UHGV virus genome: UHGV-0368429
Strand: one strand, 5' to 3'
Source: a virus
Length of the DNA stretch: 47,797 nucleotides
Positions 64 to 43,784 of this stretch are shown piece after piece. How positions within the stretch are numbered: position 1 is the first letter of the stretch; each line of letters opens with the position of its first letter. Below the pieces are notes generated by a model, which saw nothing but the letters and a program-made list of their open reading frames with translations, searched no databases and was not told the origin of the DNA. A program made the translations under genes and the position numbers.

Positions 64-1960
64 GGGGCTACAGCACTCCGCGCGCTCGGGGCTCCGTTCG
101 TTGTACCGGCCAGAACCGCAAACGGCGGTTGAGTGGGCAGACGAAAATTATTACCTTCCAAAAGAGTCTGCTTATCAGGAAGGGCGCTGGGAAACGCTGC
201 CGTTTCAGCGTGCGATAATGAATGCGATGGGTAATGACTATATCCGCGAGGTCAATGTCGTTAAGTCTGCCCGAGTAGGCTATTCAAAAATGCTGCTCGG
301 CGTGTATGCGTATTTCATCCAGCATAAACAACGTAACTCGCTTATCTGGTTACCTACCGACGGTGATGCAGAAAACTTCATGAAATCCCATGTCGAACCG
401 ACAATCCGGGACATCCCCTCACTGCTGGCGCTGGCGCCCTGGTACGGTAAAAAGCACCGGGACAACACGTTGAGTATGAAACGTTTCTCGAATGGGCGAG
501 GTTTCTGGTGCCTCGGTGGTAAAGCTGCAAAAAACTACCGTGAAAAATCTGTTGATGTGGCGGGTTATGACGAGCTGGCGGCATTTGACGATGATATCGA
601 GAAAGAGGGCTCTCCAACGTTCCTGGGGGATAAACGTATTGAAGGGTCGGTCTGGCCTAAATCGATACGAGGATCCACACCCAAAATTAAAGGGACATGC
701 CAGATTGAACGTGCCGCCAAGGAGTCAGAGCATTTCTTGCGCTTCTATGTTCCCTGCCCACATTGTGGGGAGGAGCAGTTCCTTAAATTCGGCGATAAAG
801 AGACGCCATTCGGGTTCAAATGGACGCCGGGCGATCCTGCCAGCGTTATATATCTGTGTGAACACAATGCCTGCGTAATTAAACAGCAGGAGCTCGATTT
901 TTCGCAGGCGCGGTACATCTGTGATGAAACCGGGATCTGGACGCGAGACGGACTTTGCTGGTTTTCATCATCGGGTGCCGAAATTGATCCGCCTGACAGC
1001 GTAACCTTTCATATCTGGACGGCCTATAGCCCCTTCACAACCTGGGTGCAAATCGTCAAGGACTGGATCAAGACCAAAGGGGACACGGGAAAGCGTAAGA
1101 CGTTCGTCAACACAACGCTTGGTGAAACGTGGGAGCCTAAAATTGGTGAGCGTCCTGATGCTGAGGTGATGGCCGAACGTATTGAGCACTTCGGTGCCAG
1201 GGTGCCGGAGCGCGTGGCCTATCTTACTGCCGGTATTGACTCACAGCTTGACCGTTACGAAATGCGTGTCTGGGGCTGGGGGCCTGGTGAGGAAAGCTGG
1301 CTTATCGACAAAATTATCATTATGGGGCGACATGATGATGAATCCACGCTTCTGAGGTTGGATGAGGCGATCAACAAAACCTATCCGAGGCCTAACGGTG
1401 TTGAGATGCTTATTTCCCGCATCTGCTGGGATATCGGTGGCATAGACCCAACGATTGTTTATAACCGCTCGAAAAAGCATGGTCTGTTTCGTGTCATCCC
1501 CGTTAAAGGCGCATCTGTCTACGGCAAGCCCGTGGCGAATATGCCTCGTAAGCGTAACAAGAACGGCGTTTATCTCACTGAGGTAGGAACAGACACCGCG
1601 AAAGAGCAAATTTATAACCGTTTCACGCTGGTGGCAGAAGGCGACGAACCGCTGGCGGGAGCGGTTCACTTCCCTAATAACCCTGAAATATATGATTTAG
1701 CTGAGGCTCAGCAGCTTACGGCTGAAGAGCAGGTTGAGAAGTGGGTAGACGGGAAGAAAAAAATCGTCTGGGACAGTAAAAAACGACGAAATGAGGCGCT
1801 TGACTGTTTTGTCTATGCACTTGCAGCTCTGCGGATAAGTATCTCCCGCTGGCAGCTGGATCTGGATTCTCTTCTGGCCAGCTTACGGGAAGAAGACACT
1901 GGCCGTAAAAATAATAAATCTCTGGCGGATTATGCCAGGGCATTAGCGGGAGATGAATAA
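38..1960 (+). CDS. A: Terminase large subunit gpA
   Basis: 640-aa ORF; N-terminus [50 protein letters not shown] and most of the length match lambda gpA as recalled. Confidence 0.95.
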
Positions 1961-2166
1961 TGGCAACACAGGCTGAACTGGATGCCGCGCGCGCAGCGTT
2001 ACATGATCTGATGATGGGAAAACGGGTTGCGACGGTACAGAAAGACGGTCGAAGGGTGGAATTTACGGCGACGTCAGTCAGCGATCTGAAAAAGTACATC
2101 GCCGATCTAGAGTCACAGGTCGGTACCACTTCACGACGCCGCGGGCCGGCAAGGTTCTACGCATGA
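1960..2166 (+). CDS. W: Head-tail joining protein gpW
   Basis: 68 aa; ...[41 protein letters not shown]... matches lambda gpW; start overlaps the A stop. Confidence 0.9.
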
Positions 2167-3752
2167 AAATTCCTTCTTTAGTTGGCCCCGACGGGAAAAC
2201 CTCCCTGAGGGAATATGCAGGCTATCACGCCGGTGGCGGCGGATTCGGTGGGCAGCTAAATGCCTGGAATCCCCAGAGTGAAAGTGCCGACGCCGCACTT
2301 CTGCCGAACTTCGCCCGGGGGAATGCCCGTGCTGATGATCTGGTCCGTAACAATGGTTATGCGGCAAACGCCGTTCAGCTTCACCAGGATCACATCGTCG
2401 GGTCTTTTTTCAGACTGAGTTACTGCCCGAGCTGGCGTTATCTCGGCATTAAAGAAGAGGAAAGCCGAGCATTTGCCAGGGAGGTGGAGGCCGCCTGGTA
2501 TGAATATGCGGAGGATGACTTTTGCGGGATTGATGCCGAGCGCAAGCGTACCTTTACGATGATGATCCGTGAAGGCGTTGCGACGCACGCATTTAACGGT
2601 GAACTGTGCGTCCAGCCCACCTGGGACAGTGATTCATCGCGACTTTTTCGCACGCAATTTAAAATGGTTAGTCCAAAACGCGTGAGTAATCCCGGTAATA
2701 CAGGTGACACGCGTAACTGTCGCGCGGGTGTCAAAATCAGTGATAGCGGCGCAGCGCTGGGGTACTACGTCAGTGAAGACAGCTATCCTGGCTGGATGTC
2801 GCAAAAATGGACCTATATACCACGGGAACTGCCGGGCGGAAGGCCATCATTCATCCATATTTTTGAACCGCTTGAGGATGGACAGACCCGCGGCGCAAAC
2901 GTGTTTTACAGCGTGATGGAGCAGATGAAAATGCTCGACACCCTGCAAAATACTCAGCTCCAGAGCGCAATTGTAAAAGCTATGTATGCGGCGACAATCG
3001 AGAGCGAGCTTGATACCGATACGGCGATGGACTTTATCCTCGGCGCGGATAGTAAGCAGCAAAATAAGCTGACGGGCTGGCTTGGCGAAATGGCAGCATA
3101 CTACGCTGCAGCGCCGGTTCGCCTCGGTGGCGCGAAAGTGCCTCATCTTATGCCGGGCGATTCCCTGAACCTTCAGTCAGCACAGGATACCGATAACGGT
3201 TATTCCACCTTTGAACAATCACTCCTGCGCTATATTTCGGCCGGTCTTGGTGTTTCGTATGAGCAGCTTTCCCGTAACTACTCTCAGATGAGCTATTCGA
3301 CGGCGCGCGCCAGCGCCAATGAATCCTGGGCGTTCTTTATGGGGCGTCGCAAGTTTGTCGCGGCCCGGCAAGCCTGCCAGATGTTCGTCTGCTGGCTCGA
3401 AGAGGCGATTGCGCGCCGGGTTGTCACGCTCCCGTCCAAAGCCAGGTTTAGCTTCCAGGAGGCGAGAACTGCCTGGGGTAACGCCAACTGGATTGGCTCG
3501 GGGCGCATGGCTATTGATGGGCTGAAGGAGGTGCAGGAGGCCGTGATGCTGATTGAGGCTGGTCTCAGCACATATGAGAAGGAGTGTGCCAAACGCGGAG
3601 ATGACTATCAGGAGATATTTTCTCAGCAGGTACGTGAAACTATGGAGCGCCGGAGCGCGGGACTTAAACCTCCGGCATGGGCGGCAGCTGCATTTGAATC
3701 TGGGCTGAAAAAATCAAATGAGGAGGTAAAAGATGACGCCAGAGCTGCGTAA
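2163..3752 (+). CDS. B: Portal protein gpB
   Basis: 529 aa in the position and size of lambda gpB; overlaps W stop and C start. Confidence 0.9.
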
Positions 3753-5076
3753 TCTCCCGCATATTGCCAGCATGGCCTTCAATGAGCCGCTGATGCTTGA
3801 ACCCGCCTACGCGCGGGTTTTCTTTTGCGCGCTGGCAGGCCAGCTGGGTATCACCCGACTGACTGATTCCGCTTCTGGCGTCTCGCTCGGCGCTGAACAA
3901 ATTGCAGAGCCGCTGGCGCTGTTTGGCGATGACGAGGAAATGGGGCCCCGGCCAGCGCGGAGCTATCAGGTAACAAACGGGATCGCGGTGCTGCCCGTTT
4001 CCGGGACGCTGGTCAGCAAAACCCGGTCACTGCAGCCTTATTCCGGTATGACGGGCTATAACGGGGTCATTGCCCGACTGCAGCAGGCAATGAGTGATCC
4101 CGGCGTAGACGGTATTCTGCTGGATATGGACACGCCGGGCGGGATGGTGTCCGGGGCTTTCGATTGTGCCGACATTATTGCCCGGATGCGGGATATCAAG
4201 CCCGTTTGGGCGCTGGCAAATGATATGAACTGCAGCGCAGGGCAGCTAATTGCCAGTTCTGCATCGCGACGGCTTGTCACGCAAACGGCCAGAACCGGCT
4301 CCATCGGCGTCATGATGGCGCACAGTAATTATGGCGCTGCGCTGAAAACTAACGGCGTTGAGGTCACGCTGATTTACAGCGGCGATCATAAAGTCGACGG
4401 AAATCCCTACGAAAAACTACCAAAGGACGTTCGCGCTGATTTTCAGACGCGTATCGATGCCACTCGTCAGATGTTTGCCGAAAAGGTTTCCGCTTATACC
4501 GGAATGTCAGTGCAGGCCGTACTGGACACCGAAGCGGCCGTCTTCTCCGGCCAGGAGTCCGTGGATAACGGTCTGGCGGATGAACTTGTTAACAATACCG
4601 ACGCGCTCAGCGTGATGCGTGAAGCACTCGACAGACGCAAAAAAACAACCACTGGAGGAACTATGCCATCACCTTCTGCATCTGCAGCGACCAATCAGCC
4701 AGCTGACCAGGCAGCAACACAGACGACTGCACCGGCTGAGCAGGTCACCACCGTTGACACAACAACTGCTGCCTTAACGGCCCCGGCAGACCTCAGCGCT
4801 CAGGTATCGGCAGCCGTAGCTGCCGAGAATGGTCGCATCATGGGTATTCTGAACTGCGAAGAGGCAAAAGGTCGCGAATCACAGGCCCGTGCGCTGGCCG
4901 AAACGCCGGGCATGACGGTCGAGAATGCACAGCGCATTCTGGCCGCGGCGCCGCAAAGCGCCCAGGCGCGTACCGATACGGCGCTGGATCGCCTGATGGA
5001 AACCGCGCCAGGCGCTCTTTCAGCAGGGAATGCCTCTGCTGAAGCTGGCGACGATTTGTTAAACACCCCCGTTTAA
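3733..5076 (+). CDS. C: Head maturation protease / scaffold gpC (Nu3 scaffold expected as an in-frame internal start)
   Basis: 447 aa; [40 protein letters not shown]... matches lambda gpC over its length. Confidence 0.9.
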   Translation: MTPELRNLPHIASMAFNEPLMLEPAYARVFFCALAGQLGITRLTDSASGVSLGAEQIAEPLALFGDDEEMGPRPARSYQVTNGIAVLPVSGTLVSKTRSLQPYSGMTGYNGVIARLQQAMSDPGVDGILLDMDTPGGMVSGAFDCADIIARMRDIKPVWALANDMNCSAGQLIASSASRRLVTQTARTGSIGVMMAHSNYGAALKTNGVEVTLIYSGDHKVDGNPYEKLPKDVRADFQTRIDATRQMFAEKVSAYTGMSVQAVLDTEAAVFSGQESVDNGLADELVNNTDALSVMREALDRRKKTTTGGTMPSPSASAATNQPADQAATQTTAPAEQVTTVDTTTAALTAPADLSAQVSAAVAAENGRIMGILNCEEAKGRESQARALAETPGMTVENAQRILAAAPQSAQARTDTALDRLMETAPGALSAGNASAEAGDDLLNTPV

Positions 5077-22213: not shown

Positions 22214-22417
22214 ACAATACTCAGGCATCTAACAAGTAAAACGCCGCCCATCGCATGCAAGAATTTGCGGCGGCTAAAATCTGCTCATTAAGAGTTACTG
22301 CCATAAAATTTACAAAACTCATAATTCGAAACGACATAGAAACTTAGAAACGAAACGGCGAAGCTTTAAGCATTCATCACAGACCCTCTGTCTTGCGTGC
22401 ATACTCAAATGAAACTA

Positions 22418-22433
22418 CTGTATATAAAAACAG
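22418..22433. promoter_or_regulatory. LexA (SOS) box upstream of umuD
   Basis: CTGTATATAAAAACAG = CTGT-N8-ACAG with AT-rich spacer, 18 bp before the umuD ATG; identical in form to the E. coli umuDC operator. Confidence 0.85.
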
Positions 22434-22450
22434 TGTTTGAGGTATGCAAC

Positions 22451-22870
22451 ATGGAATTTATCAGGCCTGCAGAACTGCGAGAAATTATAGCTCTCCCGCT
22501 TTTCAGTGACTTAGTGCAGTGTGGTTTCCCAAGCCCAGCGGCTGATTACGTTGAACAGCGCATCGATCTCAATGAGTTACTTGTTGCTCACCCGAGCTCA
22601 ACGTATTTCGTCAAAGCCGCGGGCGATTCTATGATCGAAGCCGGGATCAGCGACGGTGATCTGCTGGTAGTGGACAGCTCCAGGACTGCTGAGCATGGTG
22701 ACATTGTCATCGCTGCGGTGGAAGGGGAGTTCACTGTTAAACGCCTGCAGCTGCGCCCGAACGTGCAACTAAACCCTATGAACAGCGCCTACAGTCCGAT
22801 AGTTATTGGCTGCGAAGATACGCTGGACGTTTTCGGCGTCGTGACTTTCATCGTTAAATCGGCGAGCTGA
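22451..22870 (+). CDS. umuD: UmuD-like error-prone polymerase accessory subunit (S24 peptidase)
   Basis: [45 protein letters not shown]...KAAGDSM... closely matches E. coli UmuD as recalled. Confidence 0.9.
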
Positions 22871-22872
22871 AC

Positions 22873-24141
22873 ATGTTCGCGCTCTGTGATGTGAATTCGT
22901 TCTACGCATCATGCGAGACGGTGTTTCGGCCTGATTTGAGGGGGCGCCCGGTTGTCGTTCTCTCGAATAATGATGGCTGCGTAATTGCGCGCAGCGCCGA
23001 GGCCAAAGCCGCCGGAATTACCATGGGTGAGCCTTTCTTCAAGCAAAAGGAGCTTTTCCGGCGCGCTGGCGTTGTTTGCTTCAGCAGCAATTACGAGCTG
23101 TACGCTGATATGTCGAACCGGGTAATGACGACGCTGGAAGAAATGAGCCCTCGCGTCGAAATATATAGCATCGATGAAGCTTTTTGCGACCTTACTGGTG
23201 TTCGAAACTGCCGGGACCTGACAGAGTTTGGCAAAGAGATCCGCGCGACGGTTCTGAAGCGTACGCACCTGACTGTCGGGATTGGCATCGCGAAAAGTAA
23301 GACCCTTGCAAAGCTGGCAAATCACGCCGCCAAAAAATGGCAGCGTCAGACGGGCGGAGTTGTTGATTTGTCCAATATCGATCGCCAGCGTCGGTTGTTG
23401 GCTATTGTGCCTGTGGAGGACGTATGGGGCGTCGGCAGGCGCATCAGTAAGAAGCTGAACGCCATGGGCATCAAAACGGCTCTGGACCTCTCAGAACAAA
23501 GCACATGGATTATCCGTAAACACTTTAACGTGGTACTCGAGCGAACGGTCCGGGAGTTGCGCGGCGAGCCTTGTCTTGATCTGGAGGAGTTTGCACCAGC
23601 TAAGCAGGAAATCGTCTGCAGTCGGTCATTCGGTGAACGCGTTACCGAATACGAACAGATGCGGCAGGCTATTTGCAGCTATGCGGCGCGTGGTGCTGAA
23701 AAGCTTCGCGGCGAACATCAGTATTGCCGTTTTATCTCTGCGTTCGTGAAGACGTCACCTTTTGCCCTGAACGAGCCGTATTACGGCAACAGCGCGTCAG
23801 TGAAGCTTCTCACCCCCACTCAGGATTCCCGCGACATCATCAACGCCGCGGTAAAGTGCCTGGACAAAATCTGGAAGGATGGGCACCGCTATCAAAAGGC
23901 TGGAATTATGCTGGGAGATTTTTTCAGTCAAGGGGTGGCACAGCTGAACCTTTTCGATGAGCACGCGCCGCGCGCTGGAAGCGATAAGTTGATGGATGTG
24001 CTCGATCACTTGAACGCGAAAGAAGGGAAAGGAACACTCTTCTTTGCCGGGCAGGGCATTCAACAGCAGTGGCAGATGAAGCGGCAGTTGCTTTCACCCC
24101 GATATACTACTCGCATATCAGATTTATTAATTGTGAAGTAA
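22873..24141 (+). CDS. umuC: UmuC-like Y-family translesion DNA polymerase (Pol V catalytic subunit)
   Basis: 422 aa; [41 protein letters not shown]... is the Y-family N-terminus; immediately follows umuD. Confidence 0.9.
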
Positions 24142-24172: not shown

Positions 24173-24322
24173 TTAAGCAGCTTTTTTCTCGCTGCATTTG
24201 CAATGAGGGATAACAAAAACTTTCGCCTTTTTAGGGCGGATGATTTTACCATCCTTCATTACATAGGGCGTGAAGGTTACTTCACACGAATTCCCACATT
24301 TTGGACAATAGCCAGTTTTCAT
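24173..24322 (-). CDS. Unlisted small ORF (49 aa): zinc-ribbon-like protein, putatively SOS-regulated
   Basis: Translated by hand (below the 60-aa listing cutoff): MKTGYCPKCGNSCEVTFTPYVMKDGKIIRPKKAKVFVIPHCKCSEKKAA*; CPKC...HCKC; GGAG about 7 nt before ATG; LexA box 28 bp upstream; terminator downstream. Confidence 0.5.
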   Translation of the reverse strand: MKTGYCPKCGNSCEVTFTPYVMKDGKIIRPKKAKVFVIPHCKCSEKKAA

Positions 24323-24349
24323 GTGAGATCTCCTATGTAAATGTACAGC

Positions 24350-24365
24350 CTGTAAATCTAAACAG
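24350..24365. promoter_or_regulatory. LexA (SOS) box upstream of the small zinc-ribbon ORF
   Basis: CTGTAAATCTAAACAG = CTGT-N8-ACAG with AT-rich spacer. Confidence 0.65.
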
Positions 24366-24476
24366 ATTGCACCTTGTTAGGAGAACCACTATACTTTTAG
24401 CCGTCAAGCATTTTGTGTAGCGGTAGATTTCTCCATACACACCGAGTTATGCGTCAACATAGCTCGCCCCCTAAGA

Positions 24477-24500: not shown

Positions 24501-24983
24501 TCAATAAAATTCAAAGCAAAGCTGTGCTGTTTGATAGCCCAATTTATCGAGCATCGTTTCTGCGAAAAGATCCGCCTGCCATTCAGAATCTTCATTTTGT
24601 TCCGGCATGGCATTCGCAAAGTGTAAGGCTGGCTTATGTTGTAGTAGCAAGTGCCCGAGCTCATGGAATATAACAAATAACGCTGATCGTTCACCGCCAC
24701 ATGCCATTTCATAGATATGGTTTGGAACCCTGATAGTCAGTTTGTCAGGTTCACAGTGTCCAATCGTTAGACCCAGCGTTTCCTGAAACCATTCGTCATC
24801 ATCCATTGGATCGAGGACAATATTCCATTGAGATAATGTTTCCAGCGCTACGTCAAATCTGCGCGGTCTACGCCGGTATTTATACTTACTAGTAAATCCG
24901 AGTGCAAAGCAAGCATTTACAGCTATCGCTTTAATTTCCATTTCACTCAGAGGACGAACACGTGTACCGCGCATTAAATGCAT
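24501..24983 (-). CDS. ImmA/IrrE-family zinc metallopeptidase (COG2856-like)
   Basis: 160 aa with HEXXH motif (FHELGHLLLQH); immediately downstream of an XRE HTH gene in the same orientation; AT-rich. Confidence 0.7.
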   Translation of the reverse strand: MHLMRGTRVRPLSEMEIKAIAVNACFALGFTSKYKYRRRPRRFDVALETLSQWNIVLDPMDDDEWFQETLGLTIGHCEPDKLTIRVPNHIYEMACGGERSALFVIFHELGHLLLQHKPALHFANAMPEQNEDSEWQADLFAETMLDKLGYQTAQLCFEFY

Positions 24984-25000
24984 AACAGTTTCCTAAGCAG

Positions 25001-25360
25001 TTATTTTTTGTTGATTTCTGCAAGTAATTCTGCAAATTTTTTTAATTCTTCATGGGTGAATTCCGATTTTGCAAAACCAGCAACAAGCATTTGTTGTTGC
25101 TTTGGTAAACCTTCAATAGGTACCAATTCATTCGCGATAGAAGCTAAAACATCGAGATCATCAATGTAATAACCTTGCGCTGCAAAAAGTTCATTGATTG
25201 CCGTTACCCATTTCTCTGGTATTTTTTTAGTCCCTGTTTCGAGCCCGCTTAGAAAAGCAGGTGTTGTTCCTAAAGCCTTTGCCATTGTAAGCAAAGTATA
25301 ACCAGTATCGATCCGAGCTTTCCTTACGGCCTTTCCGAAATCAGTAAGAGCCATAGTCAT
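25001..25360 (-). CDS. XRE-family helix-turn-helix transcriptional regulator
   Basis: 119 aa; N-terminal HTH (…FGKAVRKARIDTGYTLLTMAKALGTTPAFLSGLETG…); paired with the ImmA-like gene. Confidence 0.7.
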   Translation of the reverse strand: MTMALTDFGKAVRKARIDTGYTLLTMAKALGTTPAFLSGLETGTKKIPEKWVTAINELFAAQGYYIDDLDVLASIANELVPIEGLPKQQQMLVAGFAKSEFTHEELKKFAELLAEINKK

Positions 25361-25459
25361 ATCCTCAGTGCTTTCATTGTGGCTTACGCCAGATGTTCTA
25401 AATATACTCTAACCATAAAAAAAGTAAACTCATCAAGAAAAATAAATTAACCAAAAAGG

Positions 25460-26131
25460 TTAAGTTATTATTTCTATTAGATTTTTACCTTGATTTCTGG
25501 CGTTTCCAACCGCGCGTGTAACAGCGTGCCAGATAAACTTGTCGGCAGGCACTGCGCCGTCGGCTGCTATCTCTTCAGCTTCTTTCCCGCCTATATCCTG
25601 ACGTATCCACTCGCGAGCCGCTTCCGGTGACAGAACCAGTGGCCGGCGATCGTGAATATCGACCAGACCTTTATCAGCTGCAGATGTCACGATGAGAAAA
25701 CCTTCAGCTTCGTCTCCACGCTCAAATGGTGTGCTGCCGATAGCCGCCATAAATATTGGCTGGCCGTCGGCCCGGTGAATGAAGTAGGGCTGTTTCTTGT
25801 CTGCTTCCTTCTTCCATTCGAACCAGCCATCCGCAAAGCAGATCGCCCGGCCATGTTGCCAGAGAGGCTTGAACATTCGGCTGGTGGCCGCCGTCTCGAC
25901 GCGTGCGTTAATCAGTGGCGGTTTATCCCACCACTCGGGCGCGTAAGACCACAGGACTGGATCAAGATGCAGCTGCTCGTTGCGTTCGCTCAGGAGCAGC
26001 ACCTTGGTACCGGGCGAGACGTTGTACCGGCCTATAGGTTCCGGGTCATACGCAATGTCACGATCGGCTTCATCGGCCAAGTATGCCAGATATTCTTCAC
26101 GGGTTTGGGCTTGTGCAAAACGTCCACACAC
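25460..26131 (-). CDS. yedK: SOS-response-associated peptidase (SRAP; YedK/HMCES family abasic-site processing protein)
   Basis: 223 aa starting MCGRFAQAQTREEYLAYLADEADRDIAYDPEPIGRYNVSPGTKVLLLSERNEQLHLDPVLWSYAPEWWDKPPLINARVETAATSRMFKP..., matching E. coli YedK with the catalytic Cys2. Confidence 0.85.
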   Translation of the reverse strand: MCGRFAQAQTREEYLAYLADEADRDIAYDPEPIGRYNVSPGTKVLLLSERNEQLHLDPVLWSYAPEWWDKPPLINARVETAATSRMFKPLWQHGRAICFADGWFEWKKEADKKQPYFIHRADGQPIFMAAIGSTPFERGDEAEGFLIVTSAADKGLVDIHDRRPLVLSPEAAREWIRQDIGGKEAEEIAADGAVPADKFIWHAVTRAVGNARNQGKNLIEIIT

Positions 26132-26311
26132 AGGAACCTCCAGTCAGTAAGACTGAAAGTATAGGGCAGGGAGAAAAAGTAGTGTGCGCTGGTTAAGTCC
26201 TACAAACGGATTCGCGCTGATTATGCTAATGAGGATGAAATGCGTAAAGCGATGCGTTGTGAAACTGGAAGGAGCTACGCAAAGTTGCGACAATGCCAAA
26301 AGAGAAAGCTA

Positions 26312-26335
26312 AACCCGGTAGGGGATCCGGGTTCG
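26312..26335 (-). terminator. Hairpin terminator downstream of dinI
   Basis: Inverted repeat AACCCGG-TAGGGGAT-CCGGGTT; T-containing tract follows on the minus strand. Confidence 0.4.
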
Positions 26336-26356
26336 CTGTGATGACAATATGGAAAT

Positions 26357-26596
26357 TCATTCATTAGTAAGCCACATATCAGACTCTTCAAACATATCCT
26401 CCAGCATACGGTTCAACTTTTCACGGTCACTTTTGCTGGCATCACTATTCAATCCGTTAGCCTGCATAGGTTTCACCTTCACTTCAGCATCAGGGAATAT
26501 GCTATGCACTCGCCTCGTCAGCTCAGCCAAAATAATTTCTCTGGCGCCATCCAAGCCCTGGACATTTCGCTTATCGTAAACCAACTCAACAAACAT
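26357..26596 (-). CDS. dinI: DinI-family DNA-damage-inducible protein
   Basis: 79 aa; ...GAREIILAELTRRVHSIFPDAEVKV...EESDMWLTNE follows the E. coli DinI pattern; LexA box 42 bp upstream. Confidence 0.8.
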   Translation of the reverse strand: MFVELVYDKRNVQGLDGAREIILAELTRRVHSIFPDAEVKVKPMQANGLNSDASKSDREKLNRMLEDMFEESDMWLTNE

Positions 26597-26637
26597 AACA
26601 GTCTCCTTAATCTCTGTGAGAGGAAGCTATATTTTTA

Positions 26638-26653
26638 CTGTAAATATATACAG
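26638..26653. promoter_or_regulatory. LexA (SOS) box upstream of dinI
   Basis: CTGTAAATATATACAG = CTGT-N8-ACAG. Confidence 0.8.
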
Positions 26654-26767
26654 TGTCAAGCGAGTGATACGATCTACACGATGGGATTTTTCGTCCGGTT
26701 GAACAGAAATTACCGGTAGTTATTCCCCAGTTATTCCCCAATATTTCCCCGTAAGAAAACTACCAAT

Positions 26768-26797
26768 AAAAAAACCAGCCATAAGAGGCTGGTTTTC
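26768..26797 (-). terminator. Rho-independent terminator adjacent to attP (would follow the reconstituted tRNA in a lysogen; tI/sib-like position)
   Basis: AACCAGCC-ATAAGA-GGCTGGTT flanked by an A-run (plus) and T-run (minus); 10 bp from the CCA end of the tRNA fragment. Confidence 0.6.
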
Positions 26798-26807
26798 AAT
26801 GTATTTT

Positions 26808-26853
26808 TGGTCGGCACGAGAGGATTTGAACCTCCGACCCCCGACACCCCATG
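26808..26853 (-). other. attP core: 3'-terminal 46 nt of a tRNA-Pro-like gene (partial tRNA, not intact)
   Basis: Reverse complement CATGGGGTGTCGGGGGTCGGAGGTTCAAATCCTCTCGTGCCGACCA has T-arm, acceptor 3' strand and CCA and matches the 3' part of E. coli proL as recalled; the 5' half is absent; int is adjacent. Confidence 0.65.
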
Positions 26854-26904
26854 TCACTGCGTTAAAGCCGCTGCAACCCTTGTAAATACTGGTGCTACGG
26901 CATG

Positions 26905-26940
26905 TTTGACTGTATATGCAAACAGTGCATTTTTTGCAAA
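26905..26940 (-). promoter_or_regulatory. LexA-box-containing promoter-like element between int and attP, oriented toward attP
   Basis: CTGTATATGCAAACAG (26910..26925); on the minus strand TTGCAA-17-TATACA flanks and overlaps it. Confidence 0.4.
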
Positions 26941-26989
26941 ATCCGCACTATATACATCAATGAGTTACGGGTAGGTTTTTCCCCATACA

Positions 26990-28183
26990 TCACCCGGCTT
27001 TAAAGACAATTTCAGCATGAGGAACTTCTACCCATTCCACATGGTTCTGGGTATAAACTTTTGTCGATTTTGCATCACTATGGGCCATCCTTGCCTGCGG
27101 ATCGATACCTTGTCTTTCGAAAATATGAGCCGCCAGCGCTCTAATCTCGTGGAAAGTTGGCCTTTCTTTGATAGGTAATTCTGCCGCTACACCTATCCGG
27201 TCCCGCAGCTCTGAAAATGCCCTGCTCAAATAATCAGGGGCCACCTGTGTTGGGTGGTTAACTTCCTTGCTTATCGGATTGCTTCTCTTTTCCAGAAGCC
27301 GGTGAATAACATAAGGACTGGCCACATTGTCTCTGCTGTTGTCGATGATCTCTTTCAGGGCCCTGCCGATCGGAATAGCGACGTGTGAAGCCTCTTTGTG
27401 CTGCACTTTTTGCCGATGAATGTAAAGCGTTCCGAATATGCCAGCCTCCTCCTGATCGAACCATACACAGCCGCAAACCCCTTCTTGAGGTTCCTTGATC
27501 GAGTACCGGATCCGGGAAACTTCCAGGCGCGCTTGCGTAGTTTGTATGGCAAGGTCCATTGCAGTCTTCAGCCAAGGTTCAGCAGCTGCATGTATGGCCA
27601 GGAACTGTTCCAAAGTAAGTCGCCGGCGGACCTTTTTATCGACACGCCGCATTTTTTTCCGTGTTGCAGGGTTATCCATCATTAGCGATTCATCAACAGC
27701 ATAAGAGAATAGCTTTTTCAGGAAGCTAACTTTTCGGTTCTGAACATTGGCCGACGATTCAGAATGGTAATTTCGTATGTAGGCATTTACGTGCTCAAGC
27801 TCAATATCGCATGCGGGTATGTTATTAAAAAATTCTTTAACCCTGATGGCATCATTATTCCAATCGTCAAGTGTGCTTTTAGACGGCTGCTCATCTTTGA
27901 TTGCTCTCTCCATAATGCGATCAACATGTTCAGAAAACGGGTGGGCTTCACCATTCAGCCCTCCCGATTCCCGAATTAATGAATCTATCGATGGTGTATT
28001 TTCAGGGCGCATCCTCAGGTTATATTCTCGGGCGATGGCGATAGCCATTACTCGATCCGAACCGAGAGTTTTCTTTTTCCCAGTTATAAGCGTGAACTTA
28101 TACACGCCACGATCTTTATCAAAAAAAAGATAATCAGGAAGGTGGCGGTATTCTTTTTTTCGTGGCCTTGCTGCCATGGTCAA
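26990..28183 (-). CDS. int: Tyrosine integrase
   Basis: 397 aa next to attP on the same strand; lambda-type position; C-terminal region typical of tyrosine recombinases. Confidence 0.85.
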   Translation of the reverse strand: MTMAARPRKKEYRHLPDYLFFDKDRGVYKFTLITGKKKTLGSDRVMAIAIAREYNLRMRPENTPSIDSLIRESGGLNGEAHPFSEHVDRIMERAIKDEQPSKSTLDDWNNDAIRVKEFFNNIPACDIELEHVNAYIRNYHSESSANVQNRKVSFLKKLFSYAVDESLMMDNPATRKKMRRVDKKVRRRLTLEQFLAIHAAAEPWLKTAMDLAIQTTQARLEVSRIRYSIKEPQEGVCGCVWFDQEEAGIFGTLYIHRQKVQHKEASHVAIPIGRALKEIIDNSRDNVASPYVIHRLLEKRSNPISKEVNHPTQVAPDYLSRAFSELRDRIGVAAELPIKERPTFHEIRALAAHIFERQGIDPQARMAHSDAKSTKVYTQNHVEWVEVPHAEIVFKAG

Positions 28184-28389
28184 CCCTCAATTATTAACTG
28201 ACGTACCGCCTGATTAACAATTGAGTCAACTCCCCACTTTTCGGTTTCATAGACAAAAACTGAACCATCTACAATCCTTCCCATGAGTAATCCGTTTTCG
28301 ACCCAACGTTTAATTGTACGGTTGTCAGGAATGGAGTCTTTGGTAAATTCGCGCTTACTCCAGAGACTCGCTTTCATTAGCTTTGCCAT
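28180..28389 (-). CDS. xis: Excisionase (Xis/AlpA-like DNA-binding protein)
   Basis: From ATG 28389 with GGAGAAGGA SD: MAKLMKASLWSKREFTKDSIPDNRTIKRWVENGLLMGRIVDGSVFVYETEKW...; directly upstream of int with 4-bp overlap; the listed ORF start at 28473 is probably an extension. Confidence 0.7.
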   Translation of the reverse strand: MAKLMKASLWSKREFTKDSIPDNRTIKRWVENGLLMGRIVDGSVFVYETEKWGVDSIVNQAVRQLIIEG

Positions 28390-34168: not shown

Positions 34169-34795
34169 TTAGAGTTCGTACTGAACGCCTTTAACTACGC
34201 CAATAATGAGGCAGTTACCATTGATCGGGATGTTGGGGTAGCGAGGATTTAGTGGGACTAAAAATTTTTGTGGGCCATCAATGACCAGTTTTTTAACAGT
34301 CGCTTCGTTAGTGCCATCAATACGCGCAACAACAATCTTGCCATGAAGGGGTTCGGCATCTGGATCAACAATAACGGTTGCCCCTTCAGGGATTGTTGGG
34401 AGGCCATTTGGATTGGTCATTGAATCCCCTTTGACCTCTAAAGCGAACGAGCTATCCCCAATGCGTAGTGATGTTTCAACCCATTTATCAACATCACTGA
34501 ATAAATCAGCGGCCTTACATTCCGTAAACTGCCCAGCTTGAACCCAGGAAATCACGGGCACACGCCTCATTTTAGTTATGAGGGTACCTTCAAATTCAGT
34601 GCCGTAAAGAATGTAATCTATTGATGTATTGAAGAATTTAGCCAGCTTAACCAGCGATTCTCCGTTTGGGATATTCACATCCTTTTCCCAATAACCCACC
34701 GCTACGTCACTAACCCCGCAGAACTTACCCAGTTCTTTTTGAGAGGTTTTTGTAACCCTGCGTAGGGCTTTAATGCGCTGACCAACCGTTTCCAT
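34169..34795 (-). CDS. cI: CI-like repressor (HTH + LexA-like S24 self-cleaving domain)
   Basis: 208 aa; N-terminal HTH; C-terminal ...AG...GDSM...K... catalytic motifs; divergent from cro across the oR region. Confidence 0.85.
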   Translation of the reverse strand: METVGQRIKALRRVTKTSQKELGKFCGVSDVAVGYWEKDVNIPNGESLVKLAKFFNTSIDYILYGTEFEGTLITKMRRVPVISWVQAGQFTECKAADLFSDVDKWVETSLRIGDSSFALEVKGDSMTNPNGLPTIPEGATVIVDPDAEPLHGKIVVARIDGTNEATVKKLVIDGPQKFLVPLNPRYPNIPINGNCLIIGVVKGVQYEL

Positions 34796-42731: not shown

Positions 42732-43784
42732 ATGAAAAATACTGTAAATATAAACAGTGTTGAGCTTGTCAACGCTGACTGCCTGCAATACCTCGCAACC
42801 CTCCCAGATAACACCATCGACCTTATTGTTACGGATCCGCCTTATTTTAAGGTGAAGCCGAACGGCTGGGATAATCAGTGGAATGGTGACGCCGACTATC
42901 TTCGCTGGCTTGATATGTGTCTTGCCCAGTTCTGGCGAGTGCTTAAGCCTGCCGGCAGCCTGTATTTGTTTTCAGGTCACCGACTTGCATCCCATATTGA
43001 GATCATGATGCGTGAACGCTTCAACGTCATGAACCACATTATCTGGGCGAAGCCATCAGGGCGCTGGAACGGGTGTAATAAAGAAAGCCTGCGCTCTTAC
43101 TTTCCCGCGACGGAACGCATCCTTTTCGCTGAGCATTATCAGGGGCCATATAAGCCGAAAAGCGACGGATTTGCTGAGAAAAGCAACGAGGTCAAACAGC
43201 ACGTCATGGCTCCGTTAATCACCTACTTTCGGGAAGCACGAGCCGAACTGGGGGTCACGTCCAGGCAAATAGCTGACGCCACCGGAAAGAAAAATATGGC
43301 GTCTCACTGGTTCGGTGCCAGTCAGTGGCAACTACCGAACGAGCAGGATTACGAAAAGCTGCAGGAATTGTTCACTCAGATCGCCATTGAGAAGCACCGC
43401 GCCTCTGAACTCAAAGCACCGCATCACCAGCTGGTGGCCACATGGCATTCGTTGAACCGGAAATACCTTGATCTGCTGGAAGAGTACAAATCTCTTCGGC
43501 GGCATTTCTCTGTGACAGTAGCCGTGCCCTATACAGACGTCTGGACACATAAACCCGTCCAGTTCTATCCAGGCAAACACCCGTGCGAAAAGCCCGCTGA
43601 TATGTTGCGGCAAATCATCAACGCCAGCAGCAGGCCCGGCGATGTGGTAGCTGATTTCTTTATGGGCTCGGGATCAACTGTTAAAGCAGCCATTGAACTG
43701 GGCCGCCAGGCTATCGGCGTAGAACTGGAAGAGGAACGTTTCAACCAGACGGTAAGTGAGGTAAGGCAGCTGGCAGGGGAATAA
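42732..43784 (+). CDS. DNA methyltransferase, DPPY class (N6-adenine or N4-cytosine)
   Basis: 350 aa; motif order ...IDLIVTDPPYF... (catalytic) before ...FFMGSGST... (SAM-binding) is beta-class. Confidence 0.8.
   Translation: MKNTVNINSVELVNADCLQYLATLPDNTIDLIVTDPPYFKVKPNGWDNQWNGDADYLRWLDMCLAQFWRVLKPAGSLYLFSGHRLASHIEIMMRERFNVMNHIIWAKPSGRWNGCNKESLRSYFPATERILFAEHYQGPYKPKSDGFAEKSNEVKQHVMAPLITYFREARAELGVTSRQIADATGKKNMASHWFGASQWQLPNEQDYEKLQELFTQIAIEKHRASELKAPHHQLVATWHSLNRKYLDLLEEYKSLRRHFSVTVAVPYTDVWTHKPVQFYPGKHPCEKPADMLRQIINASSRPGDVVADFFMGSGSTVKAAIELGRQAIGVELEEERFNQTVSEVRQLAGE

Follow-up and report, generated by a model that had tools for sequence, protein, structure and literature searches.

In phage lambda, attP is composed of a long P arm with the sites P1-H1-P2-X1/X1.5/X2-F-H2, the core, and the opposite arm with H'-P'1-P'2-P'3. 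Xis and the host protein Fis bind in the P arm approximately 70 bp from the crossover, and the sites of excisionases are usually direct repeats, not palindromes. Lambda int is also subject to retroregulation, in which sib and tI are involved. Excision of a prophage is normally coupled to DNA damage through cleavage of the repressor, which leads to transcription of int and xis. LexA operators are known in prophages as well; examples are those of coliphage 186 tum, the dinI-antirepressor operons of Gifsy, and morons of the umuDC/dinI type. In integrons, as Guerin et al. are said to have described in 2009, a LexA box over the intI promoter represses the recombinase. Temperate phages and islands also use attachment sites within tRNA genes, where the 3' portion of the tRNA gene is carried by the element; for such sites, the classification that Williams reportedly put forward in 2002 includes an anticodon-loop sublocation.

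In this study, we analyzed a 47,797-nt stretch of viral DNA (hereafter, the window) that contains a fragment of a tRNA gene. Phage genes were found on both sides of this fragment, and hence the window represents the phage (attP) form. The closest database phages were Escherichia phages Eeyore and Flotzy, with 94-100% identity across this region; no paper on either phage was found in the open-access literature, an absence that is weak evidence. A complete lambda-style attP, with the proL tRNA-Pro(GGG) gene as its target, occupies 26718..26984. Its long arm contains a palindromic box that, as judged from the sequence, is best described as a LexA-type operator forming an integral, position-constrained part of the arm.

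Layout of attP and its form in a natural lysogen

The attP spans approximately 267 bp, similar to lambda attP, and its architecture is an ordinary, textbook one, which we regard as certain. The elements were arranged in the order of three arm repeats, terminator, core, spacer, LexA-type box, the A/T-rich palindrome TTTTGCAAAA of the long arm, IHF-like site, another arm repeat, and int (Table 1). The three tandem repeats are presumed to be the sites at which Int binds the short (P'-like) arm. Related phages had similar repeats, of lineage-specific sequence, in this position, as did the prophage of E. coli CX21 at its proL-side junction. The single site GGTTTTTCCCC on the other side had the same orientation as the three repeats across the core, and its position was kept in relatives. 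The element ATCAATGAGTTAC was taken to be IHF-like by the consensus WATCAANNNNTTR. The attP has arm-type repeats on both sides of the core and a putative IHF-type site in the long arm. The spacer held a semi-conserved AAnCC-N11-GGnTT motif, and inspection by eye revealed neither a Fis consensus nor a second IHF consensus between the box and the core. Approximately 70 bp separated the centre of the LexA-type box from the core, counted from the anticodon-loop end.

Table 1 Features of attP and the adjoining genes. Positions are those of the window; strand is given where it applies.
Feature	Positions	Strand	Details
Three tandem 11-bp arm-type repeats	26718..26750		AGTTATTCCCC, AGTTATTCCCC, AATATTTCCCC; repeat families D1 and D5
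Terminator, rho-independent, phage-supplied	26760..26797	-	Hairpin 26797..26770, then T-run
Core	26803..26853	-	51-bp uninterrupted identity to host; 3'-terminal 46 nt of proL at 26808..26853
Spacer, core to box	26854..26907		Approximately 54 nt; sequence variable, length constant
Alternative hexamers TTGACT-16-CATTTT	26906..26933	+	Box in the spacer of the hexamers; toward int; 7.7 bits
LexA-type operator	26908..26927		20-mer GACTGTATATGCAAACAGTG; CTGT-N8-ACAG CTGTATATGCAAACAG at 26910..26925
Promoter-like hexamers TTGCAA-17-TATACA	26911..26939	-	TTGCAA 26939..26934, TATACA 26916..26911; unsupported as promoter
IHF-consensus-like site	26956..26968	+	ATCAATGAGTTAC; best-conserved block within the long arm
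Single arm-type site of the long arm	26974..26984		GGTTTTTCCCC; repeat families D1 and D5
int	26990..28183	-	397-aa lambda-type tyrosine integrase with arm-binding N-terminal domain; Pfam and structure matches
Small ORF, presumed excisionase (recombination directionality factor, RDF)	28180..28389	-	Overlaps the start of int; assigned by position only

The minus strand of 26808..26853 was identical to nt 32-77 of the 77-nt proL gene of E. coli K-12, which encodes tRNA-Pro(GGG). The fragment begins with the final base in the 5' strand of the anticodon stem and ends with CCA, and the block is thus identical to the 3' part of the host tRNA gene through CCA. The first-pass annotation had read these 46 nt as the 3' end of a tRNA-Pro gene; this reading was confirmed, and the 51-bp identity to the host specified the gene as proL (GGG). 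Strand exchange must fall within these 51 bp. ARAGORN detected no complete tRNA in the window, as expected from the presence of the 3' fragment only.

A terminator had also been proposed beside the tRNA fragment, and the terminator scan indeed gave a stem of 11 bp with 5 G-C pairs, followed by a T-run. Rather than being generic, the phage terminator was homologous to, though diverged from, the one that follows proL in the host, and the changes were paired on both arms of the stem (CCAGCC/GGCTGG in the phage, CCAACC/GGTTGG in K-12). In the lysogen, the phage terminator ends the rebuilt proL transcript, and in the phage form it presumably ends int-sense transcripts.

The integrase gene adjoining the site encodes a tyrosine integrase with an arm-binding domain: the product matched the Pfam families Arm-DNA-bind_1, Phage_int_SAM_5, and Phage_integrase, and matched the structures of lambda Int at E = 1.7e-14. 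At the position matching the presumed excisionase ORF, a 69-aa CDS is annotated in CX21. No Pfam family was matched by this presumed excisionase, and the sequence search against PDB gave nothing meaningful, with spurious WD40-repeat matches only. The CI protein encoded at 34169..34795 on the minus strand resembled an S24-type self-cleaving repressor, as judged from reading the sequence. Hence, induction would be independent of the box in the attP arm, and the box would be an added layer. In this phage family, SOS-themed cargo (dinI, umuD-like/umuC-like, and SRAP) clusters near att.

E. coli CX21 carries a close relative of the phage with approximately 96% identity over this region, which allowed a four-way comparison among attP, attB (the empty site of K-12), and both CX21 junctions. 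On the proL side of CX21, yejM was followed by the 5' half of host proL, the core, the phage-type terminator, and the three arm repeats, and an intact tRNA-Pro is annotated by RefSeq at this junction. On the int side, int and the box-bearing arm were followed by the core, the host-type terminator, and yejO, a gene of convergent orientation. The core run was present in duplicate, one copy per prophage end, so that the element lies between two core copies with the tRNA gene restored. These junctions bear out the prediction that integration rebuilds the tRNA gene together with its terminator.

The same junctions correct other parts of the earlier proposal. A promoter at the box had been expected to read over attL in the lysogen; however, the box-bearing arm belongs to the P-O-B' junction, which is attR in lambda nomenclature. 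Furthermore, a transcript directed outward from this arm would meet the host proL terminator immediately, with no far read-through into host DNA. Retroregulation of the sib type had been suggested as well. This is unlikely to tell phage from prophage, because integration replaces the phage terminator by the homologous host terminator directly after the core.

Strength and conservation of the LexA-type box

The window contained 5 exact CTGT-N8-ACAG sites, whereas 0.57 were expected, and none of 100 shuffles reached 5. We scored the box with a position weight matrix (PWM) for LexA that was based on 28 known operators of E. coli and gives approximate scores; the 20-mer gave 18.8 bits, and the 28 operators span 12.5-28.1 bits. 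Approximately 0.03 sites at least as strong as the box were expected per shuffled window, the shuffles for this matrix keeping mononucleotide content only. The matrix used below for promoters is likewise approximate. The box in the attP arm was the fourth best site of the window, behind those at the umuD-like gene (22416), dinI (26636), and the methylase gene (42740), which scored 24-26 bits and sit at the starts of their genes. All four boxes end with ACAGTG. The box of the attP arm is thus a palindrome with an A/T-rich centre whose approximate score lies within the range of proven operators; by sequence, it is a good LexA operator. The LexA box that the first-pass annotation had noted near the core is therefore real as a sequence element, and it is also conserved.

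Conservation was examined with loci collected by Int-protein scans. These yielded 21 genomic and 80 viral loci, whose Int proteins ranged in identity from 99% to approximately 62%. The set comprised 52 distinct phage-type arms adjoining the proL core, from which 34 representatives less than 90% identical were taken; these related arms are phylogenetically non-independent samples. In each of the 52 arms, the CTGT left half stood in an identical register relative to the core. Of these arms, 39 had the full CTG-N10-CAG, and 13, including all Proteus arms, had CTGT-N8-xCA(T/C) with scores of 7-12 bits. The register was shared by Escherichia, Enterobacter, Serratia, Erwinia, Atlantibacter, Xenorhabdus, and Proteus, and was unchanged even in arms separated from int by 1.0-2.0 kb of cargo. 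Among the 34 representatives, the ungapped register was kept to within one base. Their mean pairwise identity was 0.79 for the box and 0.83 for the IHF-like block, as against 0.39 for the core-side spacer. Scores of at least 12.5 bits were obtained for 23 of the 34, and the right half was degenerate in 11. The box is accordingly conserved at orthologous positions.

The two halves of the box were conserved in different manners. The left half and its flank, GCACTGTTTG, were invariant (52 of 52 arms), whereas the G of the right half was changed to T or C in about one third of the representatives. When CAG was retained, the next base was T in 21 of 22 representatives, and when CAG was lost, the flank was random. 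This difference fits a LexA constraint that is retained in the former and relaxed in the latter. We read these patterns as two overlapping constraints, one apparently universal on the left half and the other a LexA-type constraint that seems to be kept in approximately two thirds of the lineages.

We found the arm in 115 of the 5426 complete genomes of E. coli and also in many other Enterobacterales. Distant copies in E. coli aligned solely over 26903..26985. When viral contigs were scanned for the box pattern, 36 matches in proL arms, 59 in unrelated contexts, and one in an int-less fossil (L111) were obtained, and no second core type was observed among them.

Promoter-like hexamers and other readings of the box

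The first-pass annotation had proposed that the box overlaps a promoter, TTGCAA-17-TATACA. In this model, a LexA-repressed sigma-70 promoter on the minus strand would fire across the core during SOS and would yield either an RNA of approximately 135 nt that ends at the terminator or transcription that disturbs or assists the recombination complex. The hexamers do exist, with the box overlapping the -10. The TTG of the -35 keeps its distance from the box and is well conserved, and the minus strand has a strong terminator farther downstream. However, the consensus promoter scan did not call this pair, since the final position of its -10 (-7) is not T. The pair scored 7.3 bits, which corresponds to the mean of the best scores in shuffled 70-nt pieces (6.9 +/- 2.3; 95th percentile, 11.0). 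This percentile was exceeded in none of the 34 relatives on the int-sense (minus) strand and in 2 on the opposite strand. In these 34 relatives, the -11 A column was poorly conserved for either candidate -10, whereas ACA of the operator was strongly conserved; the conserved bases of the "-10" are thus those of the operator and not the -11 A. As a candidate sigma-70 promoter, the pair neither scored better than chance nor had the -7 T, and its -11 column was poorly conserved. As a calibration, the dinI promoter scored 12.7 bits, and the SOS promoter of the umuD-like gene of this phage just 7.3 bits, equal to the minus-strand pair, so that a weak promoter would be compatible with such a score.

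The RNA that such a promoter would produce was also considered. The spacer, which would be transcribed, is the least conserved part of attP. No conserved feature was found downstream of the box on either strand, and the ORF list contained no ORF of note there. RNAalifold with 22 diverse segments from the box to CCA gave the T-arm of the tRNA only and no structure in the spacer. The AAnCC-N11-GGnTT motif was rejected as an RNA stem, since 72.7% of the cells were paired compared with 68.2% in the shuffled control and no covariation was observed. A search of Rfam over 26300..27300 at a permissive threshold gave no match to the box or to any of the long arm; two sub-threshold matches were located over the terminator and over part of the tRNA fragment. 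The predicted RNA of approximately 144 nt folded modestly better than shuffles, and this gain is attributable to the T-arm and the terminator. In the lysogen, moreover, the transcript would halt at once at the host terminator. On these grounds, the minus-strand promoter is quite unlikely.

On the plus strand, the hexamers TTGACT-16-CATTTT point toward int, and a LexA-controlled promoter there would transcribe the 3' end of int in antisense in this phage and would drive the inserted cargo in relatives. Its -35 is good (5 of 6 bases) and the operator falls exactly in the spacer of the hexamers. The same layout is strong in a Xenorhabdus relative (TTGACT-16-CATAAT, 11.4 bits) and in locus L088 (TTGACT-18-TAAAAT, 13.8 bits). 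However, the -10 in the window matches at just 3 of 6 positions, and only 2 of the 34 relatives lie above the shuffled 95th percentile on this strand. It is also counter-intuitive that SOS would induce an antisense RNA of int just when Int is needed.

The cargo bears on the same point. In 13 relatives, 1.0-2.0 kb of cargo lies between the GGTTTTTCCCC-type site and the stop codon of int, and the insertions start just past the single arm-type site of the long arm. Seven of the cargo sets are oriented from the box to int, including HTH with an ImmA-type peptidase and SMODS with SLATT, as the plus-strand promoter would require, whereas six face the opposite way, in the direction of int. The box was rejected as a cargo promoter because of this unbiased orientation. 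Furthermore, the HTH/ImmA cargo appears, from reading of the alignment, to have its own promoter-like and inverted-repeat region. We consider the plus-strand promoter highly unlikely. Taken together, a weak LexA-repressed promoter on either strand is an unlikely explanation of the box, but still a serious rival.

Another explanation is that the box is the site of a recombination protein, an excisionase or some other accessory factor, in which LexA is not involved and the likeness to an SOS box is incidental or tolerated. The invariance of GCACTGTTTG in every arm points in this direction, whereas the G of the right half is lost in 13 of 52. The distance of approximately 70 bp from the crossover, between the IHF-like site and the core, corresponds to the Xis/Fis region of the lambda P arm, and words of the TTTGCA type recur at steps of approximately 9 bp, as judged by reading. 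However, an exact CTGT-N8-ACAG is very improbable by chance, and the 20-mer resembles the three strong boxes of this phage, which share its ACAGTG end. Conservation of the right-half ACA comes close to that of the left half, and T follows CAG almost without exception. In addition, a palindrome is not the usual form of an excisionase site. We regard a site without LexA as rather unlikely, but as a serious rival.

It might also be supposed that the box has no function and is a chance match or the relic of an SOS-regulated cargo promoter that is linked to attP. Stray operators could be left by SOS-themed cargo near att. However, the box lies inside the conserved arm at fixed spacing and outside the cargo slot, and it is conserved at twice the level of the neighbouring spacer across genera in which Int is only 68-78% identical to that of the window. 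A functionless box is accordingly a remote prospect.

Since the register is fixed, the identity of the box (0.79) exceeds that of the spacer (0.39), and the promoter candidates score at the null level, we prefer an element of the arm to a promoter. The best explanation, to which we assign a probability of roughly one third, is that occupancy by LexA would gate recombination directly. LexA would bind the operator in undamaged cells, and this operator would be built into the recombination arm at the position of Xis and Fis in lambda. Its occupancy would probably affect recombination itself, with no promoter involved: LexA would hinder assembly of the excisive complex at the int-side junction and might favour the integrative complex on attP. 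Cleavage of LexA during SOS would then free the arm as the S24-type CI repressor of the phage is destroyed. Because the left half GCACTGTTTG is invariant even where the LexA palindrome is lost, a double role is proposed for it; it would also serve as part of another site, probably that of the excisionase, and LexA would compete with that protein.

Several points limit direct gating by LexA. As 13 of the 52 arms have no canonical LexA site, the family works without one, which weakens an essential role. The asymmetry between the left and right halves means that the conserved function could be one other than LexA binding. Searches of the open-access literature revealed no description of a LexA site in an att arm; such an absence is weak evidence, and it makes the prior low.

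In its more specific form, LexA would act as a host gatekeeper over or beside the excisionase sites, so that the excisive complex is blocked, or the integrative one promoted, until SOS; this form is put forward tentatively and is somewhat doubtful. If it is true, DNA damage would be sensed through the recombination substrate itself instead of through a promoter, and the ACAG and ACAT variants, as in loci L072 and L080, would be LexA-sensitive and LexA-blind alleles, respectively. These natural G/T variants of the box are ready-made controls. At minimum, a widespread attP family has in the box a conserved element that was previously undescribed.

Comparison with known systems

The present locus resembles other attachment sites in tRNA genes in that the identity runs from the anticodon stem-loop through CCA, integration restores the gene, and a displaced 3' copy is found at the other end. 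There is no difference in the core, and the unusual feature here is the phage copy of the terminator of the host gene itself. This tRNA and terminator part is textbook, and its value is that of a clean, lysogen-verified example. The use of proL, flanked by yejM and yejO, as a prophage site has been documented in Shigella (PMC4924310); the prophage described there has a different integrase, which lies directly beside the tRNA.

With regard to retroregulation, the locus is like lambda sib/tI in that a terminator lies beyond att on the strand of int and is parted from int by integration. In contrast to lambda, a homologous host terminator here replaces that of the phage, and the 3' ends of the int transcripts would be nearly alike in the two forms.

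The LexA-type box can be compared with two kinds of described SOS boxes. The LexA operators of prophage genes are of the same type, and this genome itself contains them at 22416, 26636, and 42740; however, a gene follows immediately downstream in those cases, whereas none follows the box at 26908 on either strand. Integrons similarly tie an SOS box to a site-specific recombination module and thereby couple recombination to DNA damage. In integrons, the box overlaps the promoter of the integrase, whereas here it is located downstream of int, within the DNA substrate of recombination, and a promoter is unsupported. A LexA-type site conserved within the arm across genera, with the promoter unsupported, suggests a second and more direct coupling to damage.

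The closest likeness in layout is to lambda attP. Both have a heterobivalent Int with an arm-binding domain, three tandem arm repeats on one side of the core with a single arm site and an IHF-like site on the other, and a site of the host-factor type approximately 70 bp from the crossover. The two differ in that the core here is the 3' half of a tRNA gene, whereas that of lambda is an intergenic 15-mer, and in that a terminator lies here between the core and the three repeats. Furthermore, int adjoins the long arm in this phage and the short arm in lambda. Finally, the site at the Xis/Fis position, unlike that of lambda, matches the LexA consensus.

SOS-type genes and additional LexA-type boxes

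A LexA box was found ahead of a umuD-like/umuC-like gene pair in the window, and its 16-bp core, CTGTATATAAAAACAG, is identical to the core of the E. coli umuDC operator. The phage encodes its own translesion polymerase, which is predicted to be SOS-controlled. A strong box (24.2 bits, LexA matrix score) was located slightly inside the annotated start of the methylase ORF; either the true start lies farther downstream or the operator is within the first codons. Furthermore, two overlapping weak LexA-like boxes (9.2 and 11.6 bits) were observed upstream of a small Cys-rich ORF, which may represent a gene under SOS control.

Features of the phage sequence and of one miniature relative
Feature	Coordinates	Strand	Remark
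umuD-like (Peptidase_S24) + umuC-like (IMS family) pair	22397..24141	+	LexA box upstream
LexA box of this pair	22416..22435
Cys-rich, zinc-ribbon-like ORF	24322..24176	-	49 aa (MKTGYCPKCGNSCEV...)
Weak LexA-like box	24331..24350		9.2 bits
Weak LexA-like box	24348..24367		11.6 bits
Cys-rich ORF plus both weak boxes	24176..24367
Cargo run adjoining attP short arm	24501..26659	-
ImmA/IrrE-type metallopeptidase	24983..24501	-	in cargo run
HTH protein	25360..25001	-	in cargo run
SRAP/YedK-type peptidase	26131..25460	-	in cargo run
dinI	26596..26357	-	in cargo run
N6/N4 DNA methylase ORF	42732..43784
LexA box at methylase start	42740..42759		24.2 bits
Miniature element, L023 (Proteus cibi)	1150..4830		~3.6 kb

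Cargo genes on the two sides of the att site

The cargo run beside the short arm includes dinI, whose promoter (TTGACA-17-AAAAAT) encloses a LexA box of 25.9 bits. Homologues of the HTH and ImmA genes of this run occur in phage Phi06_2987 S and in ST536 lysogens, where they are placed between the long arm and int instead. The slot from the int stop to the arm-type site is a cargo hot spot, with insertions of 1.0-2.0 kb, in one orientation or the other, at the related loci L005, L006, L009, L010, L011, L017, L020-L023, L045, L057, L061, L064, and L072. Two cargo sets could be named from the RefSeq annotation: an SMODS nucleotidyltransferase with SLATT in AR435, and the HTH and ImmA genes of the ST536 lysogens.

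A dyad in the variable spacer

Within the otherwise variable spacer (26854..26907), a semi-conserved dyad, AAnCC-N11-GGnTT (columns 18-38 of A3, the alignment of the relatives' arms), was observed about 35 bp from the crossover. No covariation was found for this dyad, so a protein site at the DNA level is more probable than an RNA stem.

Decayed, miniature, and fossil copies

A decayed copy of the element is present in E. coli AR435 (L006) and in many similar human isolates (H15-H34), and is fixed across this large set. Its recombinase is a frameshifted pseudogene and its box now reads CTGT-N8-ACAT; the SMODS and SLATT cargo is still intact. In the miniature element of Proteus cibi, an intact tRNA-Pro(GGG) and arm repeats come first; after them lie two small ORFs and int, then a single cargo ORF of 167 aa, and finally the long arm with a second core behind it. 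This element represents either a prophage that has undergone heavy deletion or an integrative island of minimal size.

At L008, in a metagenome-assembled genome labelled Geobacteraceae, an integrase was encountered that shares 99% identity with the Int of this enterobacterial phage; the contig, DAINBV010000046.1, is most likely mis-binned or contaminating.

At L111, a fossil without int has retained both the box and its spacing. It is similar to a locus of phage Gifsy-2 (L007, 44211..44334 of the record, beside sseI), which has no adjacent integrase of this Int family. What the Gifsy-2 locus carries of the tRNA-Pro fragment is the acceptor/T-arm part, along with the terminator hairpin and TTCCCC repeats of the arm type. 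It is thus a fossil of this att type.
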